Virus record (IMG/VR): IMGVR_UViG_2609459819_000001 | Coordinates: 1-42,054 of that record | Origin: a virus | Taxonomy: Duplodnaviria > Heunggongvirae > Uroviricota > Caudoviricetes | Direction: 5' to 3' (one strand) | DNA: 42,054 bases | Shown: piece after piece, positions 2,890-39,017 of the stretch | How the letters are laid out: every line of letters starts with the position of its first letter | How positions within the stretch are numbered: position 1 is the first letter of the stretch | Notes under the pieces: generated by a model | The model's database searches: none | What the model was told of the DNA's origin: nothing | Seen by the model: the letters and a program-made list of their open reading frames with translations, nothing else | Program-made: the position numbers and the translations under genes

Positions 2890-3243
2890 TTATGCCTCGC
2901 TTGTTACAGTCGTCTGGCCGTAGATTGTGTCAATGGAGGAAGTGAAGGTGACGCGACGGCTGGTGCCGTCATAATTGGTATCGAAGGAAAGAATCGACAG
3001 AACGCCCGGTGTGTCCTGTATGCGTTCACGTATAGCCAGGATGTAGACGTCAGATCGCTGTTTACCAAGCACCGACTGAACATACGGCGTGCCTTCCGTC
3101 AGATCGAGAAACCACTGACCGCGCCACAGCTCGAAGCGGGTTTTTACTGCCTGGGCGACACATTCCGGACTGTCGATAAGGAAAGTATCGTCACCCTGCC
3201 CGAAAGTGTAATCACCGTCGGCGTCTTCACGTCTGTATCGCAT
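2890..3243 (-). CDS. Small baseplate protein (gpW / Mu gp46 position)
   Basis: 117-aa ORF immediately upstream of J-like gene. Confidence 0.4.
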   Translation of the reverse strand: MRYRREDADGDYTFGQGDDTFLIDSPECVAQAVKTRFELWRGQWFLDLTEGTPYVQSVLGKQRSDVYILAIRERIQDTPGVLSILSFDTNYDGTSRRVTFTSSIDTIYGQTTVTSEA

Positions 3244-3246
3244 AAA

Positions 3247-3345
3247 TCACCACCAGCGTATAGCGCTAATAACGCTTGACAGACCGAATAAAAAGAACAC
3301 GGCCCAGATGAGGAAGAATTTCCAGTTGGGTAGTTTTTCGCCCAT
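3247..3345 (-). CDS. 32-aa hydrophobic small ORF (MGEKLPNWKFFLIWAVFFLFGLSSVISAIRWW)
   Basis: Manually translated; GGGAG about 9 nt upstream of ATG; one predicted TM helix; below the ORF-track length cut-off. Confidence 0.2.
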   Translation of the reverse strand: MGEKLPNWKFFLIWAVFFLFGLSSVISAIRWW

Positions 3346-3424
3346 GACTCGCAACTCCCGTATCAGTTTGCTAAAATTAATCACATATTCTCCCTTGCTA
3401 TCCTCAAGGTGCAGAAAGTAAAAA

Positions 3425-3451
3425 GCCCCGAAGTGTTAGCGCACCCGGGGC
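3425..3451 (-). terminator. GC hairpin (GCCCCG..CGGGGC) with T runs on both sides; weak intrinsic terminator or RNA stability element
   Basis: 6-bp GC stem 3425-3430/3446-3451, flanked by AAAA (3421-3424) and TTTT (3452-3455). Confidence 0.3.
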
Positions 3452-3471
3452 TTTTGTCTGTTTGGTAGTTT

Positions 3472-4212
3472 TTAATTAGGCGCGGTAGTATTCCCGCTGC
3501 CATTCTGCACACCGCCATGGGTATGCTGGATGAGGCTCTTACCTCCAGCCTTCACATCGTTAGTCACCGTCACCGGCCCAAGCATCGTCGCAGTACCGCC
3601 ACTTTCGCCCATTCCCTGAGACAGATTGCCATTAATCGTTACGTTGCCGTTCAGCGTGATAGTCGGGGATGTGATTGTCGTTCCACCTTCAGCCGTAGCC
3701 GTGAGCTGGCCCGGTGTTTGAACGGTGATGTTATGTCCTGCGGCAACCTCTACGAACGCCGCACCATCATCGGTTCGCAGCTGCGCGGCGCTGGTACTGA
3801 TACCGCTGATTTTCTGTGCTTGCGACTGCGGGCCAACGATGGCGAACGCATCAGATAAGTCATGCTGTCGCGGATCGACGGTCTCCTGAACGCCGCCGCT
3901 CTGCCACCAGAAATCGATGCAACGGTCGGCAAAGATCAGCAGGCACTCGTCGCCTTCTTTTACCGGAAAGGTCAGCGTGCAACCGCCGCCGCGCGGGAAG
4001 ATAACCGGCACATCCACCAGCGGTTTTAATTCGGTGGAGCCATCGCCAACAATACCGCGAAGCGCTACCTCTACTGTGCAGGTAACAGTGTCAGGATCGA
4101 ACGACTGAATGATGCCGGGCATCGCTACGCGCATCTGGGTAGACACCGAATCGGCAATGGCCTGCGCGGTCTGCTGCTCACCGCCGATCTGTGATTGAGT
4201 TGTGATTGGCAT
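3472..4212 (-). CDS. Baseplate central spike protein (gpV / Mu gp45-like)
   Basis: 246-aa ORF; Gly/Thr-rich C-terminus ending LIQHTHGGVQNGSGNTTAPN; position between hub and W-like genes; GGGGG 4 nt upstream of ATG. Confidence 0.5.
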   Translation of the reverse strand: MPITTQSQIGGEQQTAQAIADSVSTQMRVAMPGIIQSFDPDTVTCTVEVALRGIVGDGSTELKPLVDVPVIFPRGGGCTLTFPVKEGDECLLIFADRCIDFWWQSGGVQETVDPRQHDLSDAFAIVGPQSQAQKISGISTSAAQLRTDDGAAFVEVAAGHNITVQTPGQLTATAEGGTTITSPTITLNGNVTINGNLSQGMGESGGTATMLGPVTVTNDVKAGGKSLIQHTHGGVQNGSGNTTAPN

Positions 4213-4223
4213 AAAACCCCCAT

Positions 4224-4247
4224 AAAAAAACCAGCCGAAGCTGGTTT
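4224..4247 (-). terminator. Hairpin with T7 run on minus strand (ACCAGC-ttcg-GCTGGT then TTTTTTT)
   Basis: Stem 4230-4235/4240-4245; lies 12 nt upstream of the V-like start, so probably a cargo-gene terminator read through in the late transcript. Confidence 0.4.
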
Positions 4248-4434
4248 GGTATCAATTATCTCTTAGTAACTAAGCTACATCAGTGTGAAGTAAGGCTTTT
4301 CCGCTGCAATGGCACACATTCACAAGGTGTATTAGGATATGTTTGCAACAAGTAAGCATTGAAAATCAATTTCAGCCATGAAGCCGCCATAGAGTGGACC
4401 TGCACCATCGCATTATTGACTACAGGAGTAACAA

Positions 4435-26451: not shown

Positions 26452-26658
26452 TCACCCCCACGCCTTGCTTTGCCATACCCGGCTCGGGCGAGGCGCGTTG
26501 TCGCCTTCCGGCAATTGCACGCTGACGGTCCAGGTGATGTTGTCGCGATTCAGGCTGCGCTCTGTCTTTACACCGCGCGCCCGGTATTTCTCCACCAGCT
26601 CGTCGGCCTGTTCGGTGGTGCATTCGTGATGGTGGAACCAGGAAAATTTCATCGCCAT
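26452..26658 (-). CDS. Hypothetical small protein (NinE position)
   Basis: 68-aa ORF packed between ybcN and ybcO with overlapping stop/start. Confidence 0.3.
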   Translation of the reverse strand: MAMKFSWFHHHECTTEQADELVEKYRARGVKTERSLNRDNITWTVSVQLPEGDNAPRPSRVWQSKAWG

Positions 26659-27257
26659 CACCCCGCAAAGCTCATCAGCTGGGCGGCGGCGTTTTCTGCC
26701 TCTTCACAACTGCGAAATGATCGGGAGAGTATCCATCGCCACAGAACATCGAGCGCGGCTTTGTACAGCTGCTGGAACTCGGTTTCGTCCATGTTAGCGA
26801 AGGCAATACTGCGGGGATGTTTGCGAAGTGTTCCGTCAGGAAGCTGAATAGCGTCATAGTGACCAGACTCGACGATCACCCAGGCGCGATAAGCATCATA
26901 GGATTTGCAGATGCTGATGCTACCGGCGCGCTTATCGGCGATGCGGTCCAGATATTGCTCGGCAGCATCCAGCAGTGCGCCTTCGTTTCCACCAAATGCC
27001 GCGAGGAATTTAGCATAACCACTTACGAGCTTACGCTCATTGCTGGATATCGCCCCTCCAGTAGGTTCCCAGTATTCAAACCCGAGATTCAGGAGCGCAA
27101 AAAAACGGCGATGGAATGCGGGATTCCTCACCTGGCGAAATTCGGCTACCAGCACGGCGCCGAGTTTGATTTTTGATTGCAGAATATCGCTGGTCTCCGG
27201 CGTCGCGGGGATCAGGATTCCTGATGACTGCTTGATGAGTTGTAGTTCGTGCGCCAT
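26658..27257 (-). CDS. ybcN: YbcN-like protein (DUF1367)
   Basis: MAHELQLIKQSSGILIPATPETSDIL... recalled as DLP12 YbcN-like; position upstream of ybcO/rusA. Confidence 0.6.
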   Translation of the reverse strand: MAHELQLIKQSSGILIPATPETSDILQSKIKLGAVLVAEFRQVRNPAFHRRFFALLNLGFEYWEPTGGAISSNERKLVSGYAKFLAAFGGNEGALLDAAEQYLDRIADKRAGSISICKSYDAYRAWVIVESGHYDAIQLPDGTLRKHPRSIAFANMDETEFQQLYKAALDVLWRWILSRSFRSCEEAENAAAQLMSFAG

Positions 27258-27291: not shown

Positions 27292-27540
27292 TCAGACCGT
27301 TGATTTCATATTATCAGAAGGTGGGGTTACCCGGTAGCCGAGACGGTGAATAAACTGCATAAAACCATTAGGAGTAAAGACCTCTTCATCATCCAGCAAA
27401 GGCCGCATAGAAACCATGCCATTGACGCGATAAATTAGATGCCTGCCCGATGAAGGAAAGCTAAACACCACGCAGCCGTCAGACCTTCTTACAATGTCAT
27501 ACCAGTTGTCATCTGACGTTTGCAAAGCTGAATCACTCAC
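27292..27540 (-). CDS. Hypothetical 82-aa protein, likely co-transcribed with the dinI-like gene
   Basis: GTG start with AGGGAG upstream; no terminator seen between it and dinI-like gene. Confidence 0.3.
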   Translation of the reverse strand: MSDSALQTSDDNWYDIVRRSDGCVVFSFPSSGRHLIYRVNGMVSMRPLLDDEEVFTPNGFMQFIHRLGYRVTPPSDNMKSTV

Positions 27541-27657: not shown

Positions 27658-27891
27658 CTAATAAAACCAGTCGTCAGCGCTTTCCCAGGTTTCCTGGAGG
27701 ATGGATTCGATTTTCTTTTTATCGTCCTTGTCTCCACCGAAAACACTTAACCCATCGGACCCGGCACGGCGGATTGTGAGCCTGCAATTGTCATAGTGAT
27801 CATTCAGGCGCTTAAGCAATTCTTTCTCCAGTGCTGGTACCGCGCCTTTAGGAAGTTCTTTCATGCGATCAATGGTTAATTCAACTTTCAT
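27658..27891 (-). CDS. dinI: DinI-family protein
   Basis: C-terminus KKIESILQETWESADDWFY matches DinI signature; start at second ATG with GGAGG 5 nt upstream; LexA box directly upstream. Confidence 0.75.
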   Translation of the reverse strand: MKVELTIDRMKELPKGAVPALEKELLKRLNDHYDNCRLTIRRAGSDGLSVFGGDKDDKKKIESILQETWESADDWFY

Positions 27892-27909
27892 AATGGCCTC
27901 CATTGCATG

Positions 27910-27929
27910 TACTGTGTTTTTATACAGTA
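27910..27929. promoter_or_regulatory. LexA (SOS) box TACTGTGTTTTTATACAGTA
   Basis: Perfect CTGT-N8-ACAG with flanking TA/TA, 19 nt upstream of dinI-like start codon, overlapping a TATACT -10-like hexamer. Confidence 0.7.
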
Positions 27930-31275: not shown

Positions 31276-32180
31276 CGGATCACCCCATAGGCCCAGTCAG
31301 TGTTGTTGAAGTCCAGATCTGGCTTGACAGCGCGCTGCTCACCTCCGGCGTTACGCTGCATTGTCAGCTTGTCCCACTGCTTACGCAGGCTTTCGGGACT
31401 CAGGATGTTGGTCTGCCAGAAGTGGTGTTTGCTAGCCCAGTCATACAGCGCGCAGATGTCCTGGTGCGACCGGTTGTCTATCTGGCGCATCAGGCGAACA
31501 GTGTTAGACCAGGAGGTCATGTCCGGGGCTTTGCAGGTTGGGTTAATCAGCTTCACCCTGGAGGAAATCCACTTAGCTGTCTCGAGGTCTTCAGCAGAGC
31601 CCCACTTCGCACCGGATGGTGTGTAGACCGCAGCTTCAGGATGAGTTGATAAAAATTTCTTCAGACGTGCGTCAGAGGATTCGTCAGAATTCTCTGACGA
31701 AGATCTTTTAATACTGTTCTTGTTCTTGTATTGGGTGTCTACCGTTTTCGGGAAGGTTATTCCTGATTTCGGGAAGGATTTTCCCGTTTTCGGGAATTTT
31801 CTTCCCGTTTCCGGTTTGTCTAAAATCCATGCTGAAAGGTCAGTGTTTACACCGACGATTTTCATCATGCCCTGCTTCTGTGAAAAGATGATTTTGCGTT
31901 CTGCGAGAGACTTAAGCGCGTCCGATACATGCGTATCGCTCAGGCCCGTAAGCTCGGCAATAACCGTATTTGTCACGCGGTCCTGTTTCTTGTTCCAGCC
32001 GTAGGTAAGCCAGATCACCGCCTCAAAACATTGCCATTCCCGGCCTGACAGTCTCAGGCGAGGCTTAAGCTGTTGGATCTCGTTAGCGACCTTGGTATAC
32101 CCGTTCGACAGGTCGGCCATACGACCTCCCGGTTGTTCGGTTTTATTTGGGAAATTGATTATTTCAGCGGTGTTTGACAT
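31272..32180 (-). CDS. O: Replication initiator O (lambda O family, N-terminal iteron-binding domain)
   Basis: Start MSNTAEIINFP (lambda O: MTNTAKILNF); contains iteron-encoded FPKTGKSFPKSGITFPKT linker. Confidence 0.8.
   Translation of the reverse strand: MSNTAEIINFPNKTEQPGGRMADLSNGYTKVANEIQQLKPRLRLSGREWQCFEAVIWLTYGWNKKQDRVTNTVIAELTGLSDTHVSDALKSLAERKIIFSQKQGMMKIVGVNTDLSAWILDKPETGRKFPKTGKSFPKSGITFPKTVDTQYKNKNSIKRSSSENSDESSDARLKKFLSTHPEAAVYTPSGAKWGSAEDLETAKWISSRVKLINPTCKAPDMTSWSNTVRLMRQIDNRSHQDICALYDWASKHHFWQTNILSPESLRKQWDKLTMQRNAGGEQRAVKPDLDFNNTDWAYGVIR
31740..31816. repeat. Origin iterons: four direct repeats (core TTTTCGGGAA) at 21-bp spacing, adjacent AT-rich segment
   Basis: Cores at 31745, 31766/7, 31787, 31807; each part of a TTCCCG..CGGGAA inverted repeat; inside the O gene as in lambda ori. 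Confidence 0.6.
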
Positions 32181-32189
32181 ACTGTTCTC

Positions 32190-32257
32190 CGCAATTACGC
32201 CCTGTTTTTGCACCTGAAAGCCGTTGGTGTTCGAGCACCGCGGCTTTCGCCATTTTT
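32190..32257 (+). ncRNA. oop-like antisense small RNA (predicted, about 70 nt)
   Basis: Plus-strand promoter TTGATT(32155-60)-17 nt-CATACT(32178-83) and plus-strand terminator GAAAGCCG..CGGCTTTC + TTTTT (32216-32257); antisense to the O start / cII-position gene 3' end. Confidence 0.35.
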
Positions 32258-32264
32258 GAACCGG

Positions 32265-32804
32265 TCATATAACCCCCAGCATAATCTGCACCATTTCCAT
32301 CAACGGACCGGTTAACCCAGGGTCAACGCGATACATCTCCACGATCCCCTCGCTCAACTCTTTCAGCTTCTGATGACGTGGCGCATCCATTGCGACAGCA
32401 ATCTTCGCTTCGCTGGTTTCCTTCCCCAGCCTTGCCAGACGAGCCATTACGTTGTCTTCTGGTAGCAGACGATTGCGGTATTCAATCGGCAGGACAGCGA
32501 GGATTGCCGGCGTCAGCTGGCGAACGTTTTCGCGGTACCGTTCGCTGTTGAAATGGTTATCCAGAAAGCGGAAAAGCTTCTGACGCTGTCGGCTGAGGTC
32601 ATCAGGGAAAGTGATCTCGTCTCCCCCTTGAGCCTGGTACTCTTCGATGATCAGAGCAGAAACGACATCCTGACCATCTACACCCGCCCACGCACGAACG
32701 GCATCGCGGATCTGGTCATGTTTATCTACCGAGACAGGTTGATTGCGATTTATCATCGCAGCCGTTTGATATCCGCTATTTTGATGAAGTGATAGTGACT
32801 GCAT
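32265..32804 (-). CDS. cII-position regulatory protein (YdaT-like?)
   Basis: 179-aa ORF directly downstream of cro-like gene; YdaT-like assignment by position (Rac ydaS-ydaT arrangement), low certainty. Confidence 0.35.
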   Translation of the reverse strand: MQSLSLHQNSGYQTAAMINRNQPVSVDKHDQIRDAVRAWAGVDGQDVVSALIIEEYQAQGGDEITFPDDLSRQRQKLFRFLDNHFNSERYRENVRQLTPAILAVLPIEYRNRLLPEDNVMARLARLGKETSEAKIAVAMDAPRHQKLKELSEGIVEMYRVDPGLTGPLMEMVQIMLGVI

Positions 32805-32806
32805 GG

Positions 32807-33040
32807 TTATGCCCTCGCTTCCTGAGCCGGTAATCCATCCGTAGGGTTGAGGTACAAATCAGGGCGTAACTCATGTGGAGTTACACCTGTAGCATTGAAA
32901 ATAGGAATGACACGGTTAGCCGGTACGAATCCATTGTCACGGTGACGCCAGTGACTGACCGTCATTGGGGATACATTGAGCTTTTCTGCTAAACGGGTTG
33001 CACCCCCTACGATGCATATTGCTTTATCAAGTGCTTTCAT
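32807..33040 (-). CDS. cro: Cro-like HTH regulator (YdaS/Cro family)
   Basis: 77 aa from internal ATG 33040 (MKALDKAICIVGGATRLAEKLNVSPMTVSHW...); GGAG 6 nt upstream; divergent from the repressor gene. Confidence 0.55.
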   Translation of the reverse strand: MKALDKAICIVGGATRLAEKLNVSPMTVSHWRHRDNGFVPANRVIPIFNATGVTPHELRPDLYLNPTDGLPAQEARA

Positions 33041-33067
33041 ATTTGGCTCCAAGTAATAACGAACCAA

Positions 33068-33096
33068 ATTAAACATTATGTTTATGTTCAAGTCAA
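33068..33096 (-). promoter_or_regulatory. pR-like promoter (TTGACT-17 nt-TTTAAT)
   Basis: -35 at 33096..33091, -10 at 33073..33068 on minus strand; operator palindrome in the spacer. Confidence 0.5.
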
Positions 33097-33111
33097 CATT
33101 ATGAATGTTGA
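33070..33111. promoter_or_regulatory. OR-like operators: palindromes TAAACATTATGTTTA (33070-33084) and TCAACATTATGAATGTTGA (33093-33111)
   Basis: Two perfect palindromes sharing AACATTATG in the 103-bp cro/repressor intergenic region, overlapping the pR -10/-35. Confidence 0.5.
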
Positions 33112-33135
33112 GGCGATAAACTTTTAGTTTAGAAT
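33108..33135 (+). promoter_or_regulatory. pRM-like promoter for the repressor (TTGAGG-16 nt-TAGAAT), near-leaderless transcript
   Basis: -10 ends 8 nt before the repressor ATG (33144); no SD present. Confidence 0.35.
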
Positions 33136-33143
33136 CTTGATAT

Positions 33144-33539
33144 ATGAGAAAAAACACACACCAAACAGATAACCCGCAGGTTCGGCGGTTAAATGAAATC
33201 ATCGAGAAGAAGCGCATATCCAAAGCGGATATAGCGAGAATCTGTGGTGTGAGCGCACAATCAGTCAACAACTGGTTTGTCAGAGGAGCGATAGGAAAAA
33301 GCTCAGCAATAAAACTTGCCGATGCGCTAGGCGTAAGTCTTGAGTGGGTTCTAGGTCAGGACGTGGATGCTAAGAACGGTTTGAGACACGACGAACGGAG
33401 ACTGTTGGAACTCTATAATCAACTCCCAAACGAAGAAGAACAACAGAACATGTTGCGGATCGTATCTCTACGGTTGAAAGAACTCGATGAACTGTACGCC
33501 AAGTACATGGGACGGCGGATTAAGGGCGATGCCGAGTAA
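33144..33539 (+). CDS. Phage repressor, HTH XRE family (cI-like but without peptidase S24 domain)
   Basis: 131-aa ORF divergent from cro; HTH-like region ISKADIARICGVSAQSVNNW; no Ala-Gly / Ser-Lys autocleavage region visible. Confidence 0.6.
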   Translation: MRKNTHQTDNPQVRRLNEIIEKKRISKADIARICGVSAQSVNNWFVRGAIGKSSAIKLADALGVSLEWVLGQDVDAKNGLRHDERRLLELYNQLPNEEEQQNMLRIVSLRLKELDELYAKYMGRRIKGDAE

Positions 33540-33584: not shown

Positions 33585-33683
33585 ATGAGAATTGGTATAG
33601 TGTTTCCGATCTTGGTGTTCATCGTAGCTATGGGGTTTATGGCATGGTTTATCATCGATGGATACGCAACACCCAGCGGCTAA
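33585..33683 (+). CDS. 32-aa hydrophobic peptide (MRIGIVFPILVFIVAMGFMAWFIIDGYATPSG)
   Basis: Manually translated; AGGGA 7 nt upstream; single TM helix; immediately downstream of repressor. Confidence 0.25.
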   Translation: MRIGIVFPILVFIVAMGFMAWFIIDGYATPSG

Positions 33684-33795
33684 TTCGCAGTTCCACCGGT
33701 TGATAGCTTATAACAAATTATAGTAGTTGAAGGTGAAACAGATCGGGTATCTTCTGATATAACAATGAAACATTTTGTCTATAGATAGCATAGCT

Positions 33796-33816
33796 TGCAA
33801 CTAGATTTCAGTTGCA
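33796..33816. promoter_or_regulatory. Inverted repeat TGCAACT-N7-AGTTGCA upstream of hicA (candidate HicB operator)
   Basis: Perfect 7-bp arms, about 28 nt upstream of hicA start. Confidence 0.3.
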
Positions 33817-33843
33817 CTACCTTTAACAGAGGATGTATCCTTC

Positions 33844-34098
33844 GTGGGAAGAAAGGAAAAGCTAAAGTCAAAGTTAGACGGCTTACCCAAAAATTTTACT
33901 TGGGATGAGTTCGTTACTCTCATGAACCAGTATGGCTTCAAGCTTTTGAATGCTAAACGAGGTTCTGGTCGTAAATTTTACAACCAACGTGTTGATAGAT
34001 TGGTCATTTTTCATGAGCCTCATCCTGAAAACACCCTCAAAAGGTACGTCTTGGAAGAAGTTAAACAGCTGTTAGATGAGATTGATGATCATGAATAA
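33844..34098 (+). CDS. hicA: HicA-family toxin (YcfA-like mRNA interferase)
   Basis: 84-aa ORF with GF..L...KRGSGRKF...FHEPHP pattern resembling HicA; directly upstream of a HicB-like gene; GTG start. Confidence 0.5.
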   Translation: MGRKEKLKSKLDGLPKNFTWDEFVTLMNQYGFKLLNAKRGSGRKFYNQRVDRLVIFHEPHPENTLKRYVLEEVKQLLDEIDDHE

Positions 34099-34102
34099 CT
34101 TG

Positions 34103-34549
34103 ATGAAATACAAAGGTTACTATGGTAGCTCCAGCATTTCATTTGAAGATGGGGTGATGCATGGAAAACTCGAATGTATAAATGATCTCGTCACTTATGA
34201 GGGTGCAACGGTTGCAGAACTCCGTGCAGCCTTTGAGGAGGCCGTGGACGATTACCTCTCCACTTGTGAAGAGATAGGAAAATCTCCAGATAAGACAATG
34301 AGTGGTTCGTTTAACATCCGGATAGGTGAATCCCTGCATAAAAAAGCATATTTAGCTGCTAAAGCTAAGAATATGACTTTAAACGATTATGTAAAACAGG
34401 CTGTCAGTGAGTCAGTTAATGGGAAAAAAGAGGTTCACTACCACTTTGAAAAACCGAGGGATGTTAGAGAAGTTACTTTCTTCTCATCCCGTAGACGTAC
34501 AGAAGAGACCTATTGGGAAGTTTCAGTAGACAACGGAGTGCCACATTGA
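34103..34549 (+). CDS. hicB: HicB-family antitoxin (HicB fold + C-terminal RHH-like region)
   Basis: MKYKGYYGSSSISFEDGVMHGKLECINDLVTYEGATVAELRAAFEEAVDDYLSTCEEIGKSP...FNIRIGESLHKKA matches the HicB pattern. Confidence 0.65.
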   Translation: MKYKGYYGSSSISFEDGVMHGKLECINDLVTYEGATVAELRAAFEEAVDDYLSTCEEIGKSPDKTMSGSFNIRIGESLHKKAYLAAKAKNMTLNDYVKQAVSESVNGKKEVHYHFEKPRDVREVTFFSSRRRTEETYWEVSVDNGVPH

Positions 34550-34974
34550 TGCTTGATAAAATTCGCTTTAAGGGATTTGATCTCGAGGGTTCTTCCCTTT
34601 TTATCGACGACAGTGATAATTCTGAAGGCGGAAAATATAGCTTAAAATTTTCTGAGCATCACGTTGTTCCTCAAAAAGATGAAGATGGAAATTGGCTCTT
34701 TATTGAAGTTAAGCCATCGATAACTGGTTTCCCTCGCGATAAAAAAGATTTTGATGATGGTGAGGATGTATTGTTCAAGGCAGAGGCTACCTTGACACTA
34801 ACATTTGAGTGTGACCTCGATGAAGAAGTAACTGAGGATTTTTATAATGAAAATGCTTGGTTTTTTGAAAATTATGTATATGTATGTACAAAAACAGTTT
34901 TTGAAAATATGTTCAAAAACACAGTGTTAGATACTATAACGTTACCTTGGTCCCCAACATCATCTAGAAAATAA
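34549..34974 (+). CDS. Acidic hypothetical protein (141 aa) co-oriented with hicAB
   Basis: ATG overlaps hicB stop (TGATG); about 30 Asp/Glu vs about 14 Lys/Arg; AT-rich DNA; followed by terminator. Confidence 0.4.
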   Translation: MLDKIRFKGFDLEGSSLFIDDSDNSEGGKYSLKFSEHHVVPQKDEDGNWLFIEVKPSITGFPRDKKDFDDGEDVLFKAEATLTLTFECDLDEEVTEDFYNENAWFFENYVYVCTKTVFENMFKNTVLDTITLPWSPTSSRK

Positions 34975-34981
34975 TCTCCAA

Positions 34982-35009
34982 CCCGGCCACCGCGCCGGGG
35001 TTTCTTTTG
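34982..35009 (+). terminator. Intrinsic terminator ending the repressor/hicAB transcription unit
   Basis: CCCGGC-caccgc-GCCGGG stem followed by TTTCTTTTG. Confidence 0.5.
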
Positions 35010-35010
35010 C

Positions 35011-35205
35011 CTACCCTTTTCGCACTTCCTCAGCAGCAAACCTGAACACCTGTCGCCAAAAATCGTTCTGCTCAATATCCCCCAGCGACTCCAGCATTGA
35101 AATGATCGCCTCAGTAGTGGGCGCGTCTCCATGTGATATCAGATTCAGCGTCGCTCTACCTACCGCCTGACATACATCGTTGTAACCCACGTAGAACTTT
35201 TCCAT
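35011..35205 (-). CDS. Hypothetical 64-aa protein
   Basis: ORF with GAGGGTGGG upstream of ATG; convergent with hicAB unit. Confidence 0.3.
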   Translation of the reverse strand: MEKFYVGYNDVCQAVGRATLNLISHGDAPTTEAIISMLESLGDIEQNDFWRQVFRFAAEEVRKG

Positions 35206-35317
35206 ATCCCACCCTCATCGATTTTTTTATAACCACAAAATAGACCACAAAACATACTACTCGTGCCAACGAGCGCAACCAACTAAACTTTTTGTTTATA
35301 TAAAAATGCTCATTATG

Positions 35318-35346
35318 TTGACACGCAAATAAACATTGTGTTTAAT
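35318..35346 (+). promoter_or_regulatory. pL-like early promoter (TTGACA-17 nt-TTTAAT) with embedded operator TAAACATTGTGTTTA
   Basis: Near-identical architecture to pR; operator 35330-35344 in spacer/-10; second partial site CATTATGTTGA overlaps the -35. Confidence 0.5.
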
Positions 35347-35589
35347 TGCTCCATCAACACAACCACCAAAGCAGGACGCCCACGAAGAAGCCGTCCGGGG
35401 CATTCGAAGACCGGAATGAGGTGGTGAGATTAACGCGCAGTAGGTTTGAAACGTTCCGCCAGCCTGGCGACAAGGGCAAAGCACAGAGTGAGCTTCGCGG
35501 TGGTGAATTGCAGAGTTAAAGCGCTCAACCGTGAAGATCAGCGCCGCAGCAACACCAGCGAAGTTCACTCAGAAAAACTGGAGTACATC

Positions 35590-35969: not shown

Positions 35970-36107
35970 CGAAAACCCCGCGCAAGGCGGGATTCACGTC
36001 CGGTGCCACCGACCAAAGTTACACCGGAATTTATACCAAACCAAAAAACATCCAATGGGCGCTATCTCTGGCCCGGGGATTCTAACACTCAAAAAAGAGG
36101 ATCTCAC

Positions 36108-39017
36108 ATGGAATTTTTCCATCTGATAAAAGCCAGTCAGAAGTCTGGCAAGAAAGATGCAGTGATTTGGTTCACTGCGAAAAGTGTAGCGCGCGCCAAT
36201 CTCCAACTCGATGTGGCACTGGAAGAAGCCGGAATTGAAGAAACTGGCCGCGGTAAAGATTATGCCAAACCAATCCGCACCGATTTCCCGGTATATGACG
36301 ACCTGCCGGAAGAAGGCGCAGTGGATTACACCTGGTGCAAACGCTACGAACTGCAGAACGATGACCGCACCTGGCTGCCAAAAGTCACAGCTGAAAACTC
36401 TGACGAGAAAACGGCTCAGACCGTTGATAGTCACATAACTACTGAGTCAACGCTGCCAGAAACCGCTGGCATCACGCTGGACGAACACGACGACGACTCA
36501 ACCCTCTACCCGGTAGTGCAGATGCCGTTTCGTAAGCAACTGCTTTCCCAGTTCACCGCCGACGAACTGCGCCACCACGTAACCCGCGAAGAGTACGAAG
36601 CTATCGGCGCGCTGGAGATGGACACTGATAACAGTTACGTCCAGAACTTGCTGTTAGCTGCTGAGAACTGCCCGGACGTGAAGGGTTACGACACCAAAGA
36701 CCTGTGGCGCTACACCGATGCCATTCGCAAAGTGTTCAGCCAGGACAAGCGTCACGAACTCGCGCTGGTACTCCGTTTCACCAGAATGTGGGCGGCGACT
36801 GATTACATTGACCGTGGCATCCTGGCGCGTGAATGGGCTGCCGGTAATCACATCAGTAGTGTTCAGCGTACTGATTCCGGAACCAATGCCAACGGCGGTT
36901 ACGTCACTGACCGTGGACCTGATGCATACCATACCCTTGACACTCTCGATTTAGAGATTGCATGTGCCCTTCTGCCTATGGACTTCAACCACTTCGAGAT
37001 CCCGGGCAGCATTCTTCGTCGCGCTAAAGAAATCGTGACCAAAAAAGAAGAACCGTGGAAATCATGGAGCAGCATTCTGCGCAATCAACCCGGCGTTCTT
37101 GGCGTTAACCGCACAGCTATTTTTAACCTGATACGTATCGCGCCGGAAAATATTCATCTAACTCCTGTCGCTCACCTGGAGTTTGTTAACCGGACCATGA
37201 CTGCTGCGTTTAATGCTGCTGTTGAGTTATTGCCATTGCATGAAGCTGAGCCCGCAACACAGGAAATTCCCCAACCTGAAGGTAAGGAGTCTCCGCGCAA
37301 ATCCTTCTGCACTCACGAAGAGAACCTGCAACGCGTGCGTGAAGAAGGAGCACGCCGCCGCGCAGAGGAAGCGGCAGCACAACCGCAGAAAGTCGAACAA
37401 GAACTGGTTAAAAATGTCGGCAACGGAATATTCGACGTTACGGCTTTGCTGCAGAACTCAGCAACTCATGGCACGAAAAAGGCTACGGAGACCACCAGCA
37501 ATGTGCAGGTTCAAGAAACTGTCAGTGATGAAAAACAAGCTGGTGATGAAGTACAGCCAGGCGAAAGCAGTCTGGAGTCTGGTGAAGAGTCAGATACCAG
37601 CCAGAAGGACGATGTAGACCAGAATACGGATTCTGTCGCCAAAAATAGCGATTCTGTAAGCCAAACCGAACCAGTTGCAGCACAAACCGAGCCAGAAGCG
37701 CAATCTGACGAACCAGCTGTTGTTTATCCCGCTTATTTCGAGCCAGGCCGCTATGAAGGGCTGCCAAACGAGGTTTACCACGCCGCCAACGGCATCAGCT
37801 CAACCCAGGTGAAAGATGCGCGCGTTTCGCTGATGTACTTCAATGCGCGCCACGTAGAGAAAACCATCGTCAAAGAGCGCTCAGCGGTGCTGGACATGGG
37901 CAACTTGGTGCATGCGCTGGCGTTGCAGCCTGAACTACTGGACGCAGAATTCAGCGTTGAACCGGTGATCCCTGAAGGCGCATTCACAACGGCCGCGACC
38001 CTGCGCGCCTTTATCGATGAGCACAATGCCAGCCTGCCGGCGCTGCTGTCTGCCGACGACATCAAGGTGTTACTGGAAGAGTACAACGCCACCCTGCCGC
38101 CGCAGGTTCCGCTTGGCGCTAACCTGGAAGAAACGGCACAGAACTATATGGCGCTGCCAGCTGACTTCCAGCGTATTGATGGTGACCAGAAGCAGACGGC
38201 GACGGCAATGAAGGAATGCATTAAAGAGTACAACGCCACCCTGCCGCCGCCGGTTAAAACCAGCGGCAGCCGTGACGCGCTGCTGGAGCAGTTGGCAATC
38301 ATCAACCCTGACCTTGTGGCTCAGGAAGCACAGAAACCGGCACCACTGAAAGTGTCCGGTACCAAAGCAGACATGATCCAGGCCGTGAAGGCAGTCAAAC
38401 CAGATGCCGTATTTGCCGACGAACTGCTGGATGCCTGGCGCGATAACCCGGAAGGAAAAGTGCTGGTCACCCGCCAGCAGCTGAGCACCGCGCTGAATAT
38501 TCAAAAAGCGCTTCTGGCACACCCGACCGCCGGCATGCTGCTGACCCACCCTAGCCGAGCCGTTGAGGTGAGCTACTTTGGTTTTGACGAGGAGACGGGC
38601 TTGGAAGTTCGTGTGCGCCCTGACCTTGAGATCGACCTGGATGGCGTGCGTATAGGTGCAGACCTGAAAACCATCAGCATGTGGAATGTTAAGCAGGAAA
38701 GCCTGCGCGCCAGGCTACACCGGGAAATTATTGAACGTGATTATCACCTGAGCGCGGCTATGTACTGCGAAACCGCAGCGCTGGATCAGTTCTTCTGGAT
38801 TTTCGTCAACAAAGACGAGAACTACCACTGGATCGCCATCATCGAGGCATCCGCTGAACTACTGGAGCTGGGTATGCTCGAGTACCGCAAAGCGATGCGC
38901 AATATCGCAACCGGATTCGACACAGGTGAATGGCCAGCGCCAATCACTGCTGACTACACCGACGAACTGAACGACTTCGACCTGCGCCGCCTTGAAGCGC
39001 TGCGTACTCAGGCATAA
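36108..39017 (+). CDS. recE: RecE-like exonuclease VIII (C-terminal PD-(D/E)xK nuclease domain)
   Basis: 969 aa from ATG 36108 (AAGAGG upstream); acidic N-terminal region; C-terminal RPDLEIDLDGVRIGADLKT with Asp and D-x-K motifs; followed by recT-like gene. Confidence 0.55.
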   Translation: MEFFHLIKASQKSGKKDAVIWFTAKSVARANLQLDVALEEAGIEETGRGKDYAKPIRTDFPVYDDLPEEGAVDYTWCKRYELQNDDRTWLPKVTAENSDEKTAQTVDSHITTESTLPETAGITLDEHDDDSTLYPVVQMPFRKQLLSQFTADELRHHVTREEYEAIGALEMDTDNSYVQNLLLAAENCPDVKGYDTKDLWRYTDAIRKVFSQDKRHELALVLRFTRMWAATDYIDRGILAREWAAGNHISSVQRTDSGTNANGGYVTDRGPDAYHTLDTLDLEIACALLPMDFNHFEIPGSILRRAKEIVTKKEEPWKSWSSILRNQPGVLGVNRTAIFNLIRIAPENIHLTPVAHLEFVNRTMTAAFNAAVELLPLHEAEPATQEIPQPEGKESPRKSFCTHEENLQRVREEGARRRAEEAAAQPQKVEQELVKNVGNGIFDVTALLQNSATHGTKKATETTSNVQVQETVSDEKQAGDEVQPGESSLESGEESDTSQKDDVDQNTDSVAKNSDSVSQTEPVAAQTEPEAQSDEPAVVYPAYFEPGRYEGLPNEVYHAANGISSTQVKDARVSLMYFNARHVEKTIVKERSAVLDMGNLVHALALQPELLDAEFSVEPVIPEGAFTTAATLRAFIDEHNASLPALLSADDIKVLLEEYNATLPPQVPLGANLEETAQNYMALPADFQRIDGDQKQTATAMKECIKEYNATLPPPVKTSGSRDALLEQLAIINPDLVAQEAQKPAPLKVSGTKADMIQAVKAVKPDAVFADELLDAWRDNPEGKVLVTRQQLSTALNIQKALLAHPTAGMLLTHPSRAVEVSYFGFDEETGLEVRVRPDLEIDLDGVRIGADLKTISMWNVKQESLRARLHREIIERDYHLSAAMYCETAALDQFFWIFVNKDENYHWIAIIEASAELLELGMLEYRKAMRNIATGFDTGEWPAPITADYTDELNDFDLRRLEALRTQA

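Follow-up and report, generated by a model that had tools for sequence, protein, structure and literature searches.

The operators of phage lambda are tripartite, with sites spaced 23 to 24 bp apart, and lambda CI activates the promoter pRM from a position with the OR2 geometry, at about -42. The subject of this report is a region resembling such a switch in a 42,054-nt stretch of viral DNA (Caudoviricetes; positions 1 to 42,054 of the IMG/VR record IMGVR_UViG_2609459819_000001), here called the window. In it, a repressor gene lies between two operator regions: the right operator (OR), with the divergent promoters pR and pRM, and the left operator (OL), with the promoter pL. Two of the closest described systems also have short repressors. 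Those of the Gifsy prophages escape cleavage and lose their activity through small antirepressors instead (Lemire et al. 2011, PMC3121763), whose genes follow a dinI homologue under the control of a LexA box outside the immunity region; GfoA, for one, inactivates GfoR, the repressor of Gifsy-1 in Salmonella Typhimurium ATCC14028 (PMC3121763). In the second system, CP-933P (Sp12) of Escherichia coli O157:H7, the genes are those of PaaR2, YdaS, and YdaT, and the starts of PR and PRM have been mapped (Jurenas et al. 2021, PMC8630535). The paaR2 mRNA was shown experimentally to be leaderless, PL has the same -35 and -10 hexamers as PR together with similar operators, PaaR2 and YdaS both give footprints on the intergenic region, and PaaR2 at low levels activates PRM; the prophage itself is cryptic and not inducible by mitomycin C (PMC8630535).

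In our judgement, the region is very probably a lambdoid prophage's immunity switch, and of the GfoR type found in Gifsy-1 of ATCC14028. Its design is conventional: an ordinary lambda-like switch worked by a repressor of a known family. A preliminary description of this DNA had claimed a lambda-like architecture, and the gene order, the site statistics, the conservation, and the covariation all fit that claim. The order of genes and sites (cro, pR/OR/pRM, cI with morons, OL/pL) mirrors that of lambda. The promoter pR lies on the minus strand at 33068..33096, with the -35 hexamer TTGACT (33096-33091), a 17-nt spacer, and the -10 hexamer TTTAAT (33073-33068); pL lies on the plus strand at 35318..35346, with TTGACA (35318-35323), again a 17-nt spacer, and TTTAAT (35341-35346). 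The hexamers and coordinates first given for both promoters read correctly in the window sequence, and these two are the only matches to the exact pattern TTGACW-N17-TTTAAT in the whole 42 kb. The pR transcript is predicted to start near 33060-33064 on the minus strand, with a cro/ydaS-like gene downstream, and the pL transcript near 35353, from where it would drive a kil-like gene and recE.

The leader that follows pL is itself strongly conserved. The stretch (A)CCACC(C/A)AGGCAGGACGCCCACG, at 35375-35400 in the window and at equivalent positions in all the related loci surveyed below, lies about 25-50 nt past the predicted start and is kept even where its flanks diverge. It could be a nut-like element or some other RNA- or protein-binding element; a structured RNA at this place was considered and set aside as unsupported (fold z-score +1.16), and the sole Rfam match, to isrB and below threshold, lies further downstream.

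The pattern TAAAC-N5-GTTTA occurs exactly four times in the window (at 33070, 33117, 35284, and 35330), against an expectation of 0.00 from 100 shuffles, and all four matches fall in the two promoter regions. A window-wide search for the palindrome, the check that the preliminary description had proposed, thus returned four strong sites, every one of them in OR or OL. When a weight matrix built from the strong sites of the related loci was used to score 42,040 positions of the window, these four reached 22.6-25.8 bits, and the next best position reached 12.0 bits. OR1 (33070-33084, TAAACATTATGTTTA, centre 33077; 25.8 bits) covers the pR spacer and -10, and OR3 (33117-33131, TAAACTTTTAGTTTA, centre 33124; 22.6 bits) lies across the spacer and -10 of pRM. 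On the other side, OL1 (35330-35344, TAAACATTGTGTTTA, centre 35337; 23.2 bits) is conserved and covers the pL spacer and -10, and OL3 (35284-35298, TAAACTTTTTGTTTA, centre 35291; 23.9 bits) lies 46 bp upstream of it. The operator had originally been read as TAAACA-N3-TGTTTA, that is, TAAACATT(A/G)TGTTTA, and located within the spacers of pR and pL. That longer form is present at OR1 and OL1, but the conserved unit is TAAAC-N5-GTTTA; likewise, the palindrome is found in each spacer, but its last 4 nt also open the -10 hexamer, and part of it therefore lies outside the spacer. The first reading had identified the two promoter-proximal sites and missed the sites at 33117-33131, over pRM, and at 35284-35298. 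Across the related loci, the central five bases of the sites are variable yet A/T-rich. The longer symmetry TAAACA-N3-TGTTTA is confined to the promoter-proximal sites and is a plausible basis for higher affinity there.

Between the strong sites of each operator lies a weak third site, which we propose from its position and conservation. OR2 (33093-33107, TCAACATTATGAATG, centre 33100) overlaps the pR -35 and lies 23 bp from OR1; it is a degenerate site in which one arm matches well, it repeats OR1's left half in direct orientation, and it ranks 23rd of the 42,040 scored positions. OL2 (35307-35321, TGCTCATTATGTTGA, centre 35314) overlaps the pL -35, lies 23 bp from both OL1 and OL3, and is a degenerate half-site ranking 51st of 42,040. 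At OL2, the block (A/C)(C/T)TCATWWTGTTGAC is kept beyond the -35 hexamer in 69 distinct OLs. Each operator thus consists of two strong sites and one weak conserved half-site in a rhythm of 23-24 bp, and OR and OL would both be tripartite, like those of lambda. The fifth-best matrix match in the window, the 12.0-bit sequence GAAACATTTTGTCTA at 33767-33781, was considered as a fifth operator and rejected; it lies inside the mobile hicAB cassette described below, just upstream of hicA, and is probably unrelated, being either a chance match or a HicB operator.

The promoter of the repressor gene, pRM, is on the plus strand at 33108..33135 and reads TTGAGG-16-TAGAAT; its -35 is weak, with only TTG conserved. 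It is the sole promoter called by a consensus scan in the OR intergenic region. The repressor ATG, at 33144, follows the pRM -10 by 8 nt, and no Shine-Dalgarno sequence is present. The pRM-like promoter and near-leaderless repressor mRNA first proposed for this locus therefore agree with the sequence; in the GfoR group, the ATG stands 6 nt after the pRM -10, the same distance as for lambda cI. The repressor gene itself (33144..33539, plus strand) encodes a 131 amino acid (aa) protein of the GfoR type, with a helix-turn-helix (HTH) domain at residues ~11-69 and a C-terminal helical hairpin. Its Pfam matches are limited to HTH_3, Phage_CI_repr, and other HTH models; Peptidase_S24 is absent from them, and a length of 131 aa leaves no room for such a domain. 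The protein is therefore not a cleavable CI, and in this respect it falls outside the lambda CI family. An AlphaFold2 model (mean predicted local distance difference test, pLDDT, 87) shows a five-helix Xre/CI domain (11-69) and a helical hairpin (82-130). Searches of solved structures gave only generic HTH matches (E at least 0.1 by sequence, best Foldseek E 3e-3), among them C.Csp231I, SinR, P22 c2, and the N-terminal domain of lambda cI.

Loci with repressors 73-100% identical to that of the window were surveyed, comprising 80 IMG/VR contigs (92-99% identity), one Klebsiella phage record, four Salmonella loci, and 13 species-representative genomes, and covering the genera Escherichia, Salmonella, Citrobacter, Klebsiella, Raoultella, Enterobacter, Kluyvera, Siccibacter, Silvania, and Leclercia. 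OR was located in 98 loci, and all have a pair of TAAAC-N5-GTTTA sites 47 bp apart, at positions -74/-27 or -72/-25 relative to the repressor ATG. A second pair, 46 bp apart and corresponding to OL, is present in 93 of these 98 loci, 0.58-3.3 kb downstream, whatever cargo genes intervene. Over 60 distinct ORs and 69 distinct OLs, the operator arms, the hexamers TTGAC(A/T) and TTTAAT, and the pRM -10 TA(G/A)AAT are invariant or nearly so, as is the 17-nt spacing of pR and pL in about 100 related loci, and the stretches between sites are scrambled. In the closest group, the pairwise difference is 0 at operator and promoter bases, 0.14-0.16 at third codon positions, and 0.3-0.5 in the spacer between sites. 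The O1-O2 spacer was also considered as a hypervariable hotspot, but a divergence of 0.3-0.5 fits neutral drift over its 4-5 sites. The conserved stretch of both pR and pL ends precisely with the final T of TTTAAT; because it reaches that T, beyond the operator arms, TTTAAT is likely to be truly used as a -10. The repressor module is rare in E. coli, being found in 12 of 5,426 complete genomes, and is annotated just as "helix-turn-helix protein". Among phage records, the window-type OR was found in one Klebsiella prophage-derived record only, in which the repressor is mislabelled Cro.

One homologue ties the family to a repressor that has been studied. This protein (P0112 in our set; 131 aa, present on over 1000 contigs and sharing 73% identity with the window repressor) is, from its sequence, GfoR, because the primers le144/le145 (PMC3121763) match its first codons and the 3' flank of its gene in locus L082, where the downstream parA-like gene also agrees with the published account. 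GfoR and the window repressor are 79% identical in residues 1-75 and 61% identical in residues 76-131, and the recognition helix, VSAQSVNNWFVRG, is the same in both; the GfoR locus has TAAAC-N5-GTTTA arms at the same OR and OL positions as the window. Protein gp38 of phage mEp237 is 72% identical to the window repressor (77% in the N-terminal and 65% in the C-terminal part) and has a near-identical helix, VTSQSVNNWFVRG, but no TAAAC-N5-GTTTA site occurs anywhere in the mEp237 genome, even with one mismatch allowed, so that gp38 offers no arms of its own for comparison.

In heteroimmune relatives, the N-terminal domain is 44-54% and the C-terminal domain 77-87% identical to that of the window repressor, and the operator arms differ. 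They are GTAAA-N7-TTTAC for mEp237 gp39, L020, and ST846phi9.2, where pR and pL both read TTGACT-17-TTTACT; and TAAGC-N5-GCTTA-like for SEN34 and SW-37, with promoters TTGATT-17-CTTAAT. A further distant homologue, that of PHB10, goes with (G/A)TAAAC-N5-ATTTAC. The layout remains the same in these distant homologues from isolated phages: OR again contains a pair of strong palindromes spaced by 47-49 bp, and pR again has a twin in pL, the operator running into the -10 of each. That the arms change together with the N-terminal domain supports the reading of the operator by the N-terminal HTH, and the conserved C-terminal hairpin suggests a surface for dimerisation and for antirepressor binding, which would fit the reported cross-reactivity of GfoA and GfhA (PMC3121763). 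The preliminary description had held that these sites define the immunity specificity and predict the recognition sequence of the repressor; the site statistics, the conservation, and the covariation of arms and N-terminal domain agree with this, repressor binding being the step that we infer. The YdaS-like Cro also changes along with the arms, and it is likely that Cro shares the sites with the repressor. In all specificity groups of the family (the window, L020, L099, and L100), the -10 begins with four bases of the operator arm and has T at -11; the -10 variants TTTAAT, TTTACT, and CTTAAT are a consistent departure from the canonical TATAAT.

Tandem repressor paralogues were seen in mEp237 (L099/L105, record positions 32154-33033), SEN34 (L100, locus positions 3090-3902), and L020 (locus positions 3514-4396). 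The first of each pair is the phage's own repressor, with GTAAA-N7-TTTAC or TAAGC-N5-GCTTA operators; the second, directly downstream, has another specificity and no operators of its own, which suggests a "stowaway" immunity gene directed against heteroimmune phages. It is conceivable, though we regard the idea as tentative and rather doubtful, that the short Gifsy-type repressors obey a simple operator code, in which a shared TAAA...TTTA core is read by a swappable N-terminal domain, a flanking base sets the specificity, and the C-terminal part is the target of the antirepressor. The specificity base may lie just inside or just outside the core (TAAAC-N5-GTTTA, GTAAA-N7-TTTAC, TAAGC-N5-GCTTA), and in such a design four bases of the outer arm would always open an unusual -10 that has T at -11. 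Were such a code true, sequence could be used to assign hundreds of enterobacterial prophages to their immunity groups, and the operator-less second repressors of mEp237, SEN34, and L020 would be explained as weapons against heteroimmune competitors.

How the switch would work can be proposed from the sequence; repressor binding, affinity order, cooperativity or looping, pRM activation, transcription starts, and antirepressor action are all inferred. A dimer of the 131-aa HTH repressor would read the 15-bp TAAAC-N5-GTTTA site, the half-site centres of which are 10 bp apart. In the lysogen, repressor bound at OR1 and OL1, with cooperative binding at OR2 and OL2, would occlude RNA polymerase at pR and pL. 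The replication genes and the cro/ydaS-like and ydaT/CII-like genes on the pR side would thereby be silenced, as would kil and recE on the pL side. Repressor at OR2 could also stimulate pRM, because this site, at about -42 from the pRM start, adjoins a poor -35 (TTGAGG). Occupancy of OR3, over the pRM spacer and -10, would give negative autoregulation and so limit repressor synthesis. The pRM transcript is expected to begin at the repressor AUG or no more than ~2 nt from it and would thus be leaderless or nearly so. The YdaS-like Cro probably binds the same region, shutting pRM in lytic growth. Induction is expected to proceed through a LexA-controlled antirepressor because the repressor has no cleavage domain: DNA damage would lead to LexA cleavage and to expression of dinI and a GfoA-like antirepressor from the box at 27910-27929, and the antirepressor would then bind the repressor and strip it off the operators.

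Several observations weigh against this account, or against parts of it. On gel filtration, GfoR behaved as a dimer (PMC3121763), which leaves higher-order cooperativity and looping between OL and OR unproven in its family. The matrix gives OR2 only 1.8 bits and OL2 -0.8 bits, and the conservation of both is partly due to the -35 hexamers that they overlap. OR1 and OR3 both have perfect arms, which leaves their filling order uncertain; a lambda-like affinity order rests only on the extra A/T pair at the promoter-proximal sites and is a guess. The consensus promoter scan, which requires A at the second -10 position, called neither pR nor pL, because TTTAAT has T there (-11); hence the strength and the exact starts of the two promoters are uncertain. 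Finally, sequence alone cannot assign the sites to the repressor or to Cro, since Cro/YdaS co-varies with the repressor and the operators in every locus. This last point admits an alternative in which TAAAC-N5-GTTTA is mainly an operator for the Cro/YdaS-like protein and the repressor reads some other site, such as the TCAAC...GTTGA palindrome near pR. Cro homologues with a conserved HTH do accompany the sites in every related locus, and YdaS of CP-933P gives footprints on the same intergenic region as PaaR2 (PMC8630535). However, the TCAAC palindrome is complete at OR only, with a half-site at OL, yet a lysogen must also repress pL; its symmetry is not conserved, and a repressor that blocks pR and pL would have to sit at just the positions of the strong sites. 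Both proteins share operators in lambda-like switches, so this alternative, unlikely in our estimation, mostly reduces to the statement that both bind. Retaining the repressor as the reader of TAAAC-N5-GTTTA, one may still ask whether the pR and pL hexamers are working promoters at all. In sigma-70 promoters, the A at -11 is the most critical base of the -10, and a T there might render the two hexamer pairs non-functional, with the early transcripts starting elsewhere or an extra factor being needed. The rejection of the hexamers by the scan would agree with this proposal. Against it, TTGAC(A/T)-17-TTTAAT is retained in ~100 loci, up to a last T that the operator arms do not reach, heteroimmune relatives share the promoter design (TTGACT-17-TTTACT in the L020/mEp237 type, TTGATT-17-CTTAAT in SEN34), and neither inspection nor the scan found a better hexamer pair in either intergenic region. 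We therefore consider it improbable, and treat TTGAC(A/T)-17-TTTAAT as the early promoters.

The preliminary description also singled out a longer palindrome upstream of pRM. It is indeed perfect, an 8-3-8 inverted repeat at 33093-33111 (TCAACATT-ATG-AATGTTGA), and it overlaps the pR -35 as stated, spanning OR2 and the start of the pRM -35; nevertheless, it is not significant on its own, and its symmetry is not conserved. About one such repeat is to be expected by chance in a window (0.68 on average, with at least one in 51 of 100 simulations). Among the 60 distinct ORs, 8 of 8 pairs are symmetric in 16, 7 of 8 in 25, and 6 of 8 in 19; although the sequence itself is conserved in all ORs, the substitutions are one-sided and not compensatory. 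The perfect repeat in the window and that general conservation could be taken as signs of separate binding by a third factor, for example a host protein or the YdaT/CII-like protein. But the palindrome is just as conserved in Gifsy-1 loci that have a lambda-type CII in place of YdaT, and YdaT of CP-933P binds at the ydaS/ydaT junction and not at OR (PMC9986795). Moreover, its bases are accounted for otherwise: the outer ones belong to two divergent -35 hexamers, GTCAA being the complement of TTGAC of pR and TTGA opening the -35 of pRM, and the left half of OR1 recurs in its left and central part. At OL, only the half of the palindrome that faces OL1 is found. A third-factor site is thus very improbable, and an independent operator was rejected as the primary reading of the palindrome; it is better read as the weak O2 site together with two back-to-back -35 elements.

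Compared with Gifsy-1, the locus has a repressor of 73% identity with the same recognition helix, the same operator arms and positions, and a YdaS-like Cro; in both, the repressor is short and has no cleavage domain, and a LexA box, dinI, and a GfoA-like open reading frame (ORF) lie outside the immunity region. The differences are that the second pR gene is of the YdaT type in the window and of the lambda-CII type in Gifsy-1, that the cargo is a membrane protein, hicAB, and a further ORF in the window and parA-like genes in Gifsy-1, that the C-terminal domains are 61% identical, and that the ATG stands 8 nt (window) or 6 nt (GfoR) after the pRM -10. From the shared helix and operators, the window prophage and Gifsy-1 (ATCC14028) are predicted to be homoimmune or nearly so; sequence likewise makes immunity predictable in the other direction, with heteroimmunity towards mEp237-type and GfhR-like phages. 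CP-933P is alike in having a short non-cleavable CI analogue, YdaS as Cro, YdaT as CII, divergent PR and PRM in an intergenic region of ~100 bp, and, after the repressor gene, a toxin-antitoxin cassette (hicAB in the window, paaA2-parE2 in CP-933P), but its published operators are four 18-bp inverted repeats with the half-site consensus GTTTAGTAA. The Rac prophage (PMC9638921, PMC5700373) shares the divergent repressor and ydaS-ydaT operons and three inverted-repeat intergenic operators, with O1 over the ydaS promoter; it differs in that the RacR operators read (T/A)TAGGC-N3-GCCTA(T/A), O3 overlaps the RacR start codon, and RacR is larger and described as having two HTH domains.

The likeness to lambda itself lies in the mirrored gene order, three proposed sites per operator at 23-24 bp, a repressor mRNA predicted to be leaderless or nearly so, and a central site at about -42 from the predicted pRM start, beside a poor -35. 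Unlike lambda CI, the window repressor lacks the S24 autocleavage and oligomerisation domain, and its sites are of 15 bp rather than 17 bp. The outer sites are strong and the central one very weak, whereas the lambda sites are graded (OR1 > OR2 > OR3); induction is predicted to be by antirepressor, and Cro and CII come from unrelated families (YdaS and YdaT). The lambda design, with operators that would be tripartite, a pL that matches pR, and a repressor mRNA predicted to lack a leader or nearly so, is thus kept in a lineage where a LexA-controlled antirepressor has replaced self-cleavage. General understanding of such switches is unchanged by these results, and the biology of GfoR-type repressors and antirepressors was already known. 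The GfoR operators were not found in the searchable text of PMC3121763, and the exact operator strings gave no relevant match in the searchable literature; what is gained is a concrete operator sequence for the GfoR immunity type, TAAAC-N5-GTTTA, in four strong and two weak sites.

The proposed induction module lies outside the immunity region. A putative LexA box at 27910-27929 (TACTGTGTTTTTATACAGTA), which contains the only CTGT-N8-ACAG match in the window, is upstream of an operon of dinI and an antirepressor candidate. The dinI homologue (27658..27903, minus strand; Pfam DinI 92.6 bits; PHROG 189) is the first gene after the box, and its translation probably begins at the ATG at 27891, preceded by GGAGG. 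The GfoA-like antirepressor candidate (27292..27540, minus strand) is an 82-aa ORF, the ends of which, MSDSALQ and VTPPSD, match those encoded by the gfoA primers pp866/pp867 (MSNSALQ; VTPPSDI) of PMC3121763. Of 50,697 phage records, 24 contain a homologue of the repressor and 13 a homologue of the 82-aa ORF; 12 of those 13 are also among the 24. Phage mEp237 has the same module of LexA box, dinI, and antirepressor, and its 82-aa protein is 96% identical. A NinB/DUF1367 gene (26658-27257) comes after the 82-aa ORF.

The pR operon begins with the cro-like gene (32807..33040, minus strand), encoding a 77-aa protein of the YdaS family (PHROG 35; Pfam YdaS_toxin PF15943, 58.1 bits against a cut-off of 30). 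The second gene, the CII-like gene (32265..32804, minus strand), encodes a 179-aa protein of the YdaT family (Pfam YdaT_toxin PF06254, 87.1 bits against a cut-off of 21; PHROG 163, CII-like activator). Because the Gifsy-1 loci have a lambda-type CII instead, a CII of the YdaT type is not tied to the operators. After the ydaT-like gene come lambda-type O, identified by Pfam, and P, identified by position and ORF only. Downstream of pL, a Kil-like gene (PHROG 294) is followed by a 1004-aa ORF at 36003-39017, homologues of which in the related loci are annotated as exonuclease VIII or RecE.

Between the repressor gene and pL, the order is a membrane-protein ORF, hicA, hicB, a further ORF, a terminator (34982-34999), a minus-strand moron, and pL itself. 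The moron block proper (33585-34974) encodes a 32-aa YoaK-like membrane protein, HicA, HicB, and a 141-aa protein (PHROG 19522). The stretch from ~33505 onwards is 99.7% identical to phages mEp234 and HK106; because these share neither the repressor gene, except its last ~35 bases, nor OR with the window, the hicAB block is a mobile cassette. Its position parallels that of the paaA2-parE2 toxin-antitoxin pair downstream of PaaR2 in CP-933P. The minus-strand gene at 35011-35205, a 64-aa ORF, is transcribed away from OL3, and a possible TTGGTT-17-TAGTAT promoter for it abuts that site. It was considered as part of the immunity module, but only 11 of 93 related loci have it, and it is therefore a moron.

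Two minor features remain. On the minus strand at 35971-36066, antisense to the start of the recE-like ORF, there is a sub-threshold Rfam match to the Hfq-binding small RNA isrB (30.4 bits against a gathering score of 35, E = 0.01). The other is an inverted repeat, GTAACTC-N5-GAGTTAC, at 32866-32884, inside the 3' part of the cro/ydaS gene. With up to two mismatches allowed, it was found in 31 of 79 loci with YdaT versus 1 of 19 without. The repeat occupies the same place as the YdaT OM site by pRE of CP-933P, and it is a candidate YdaT/pRE site.

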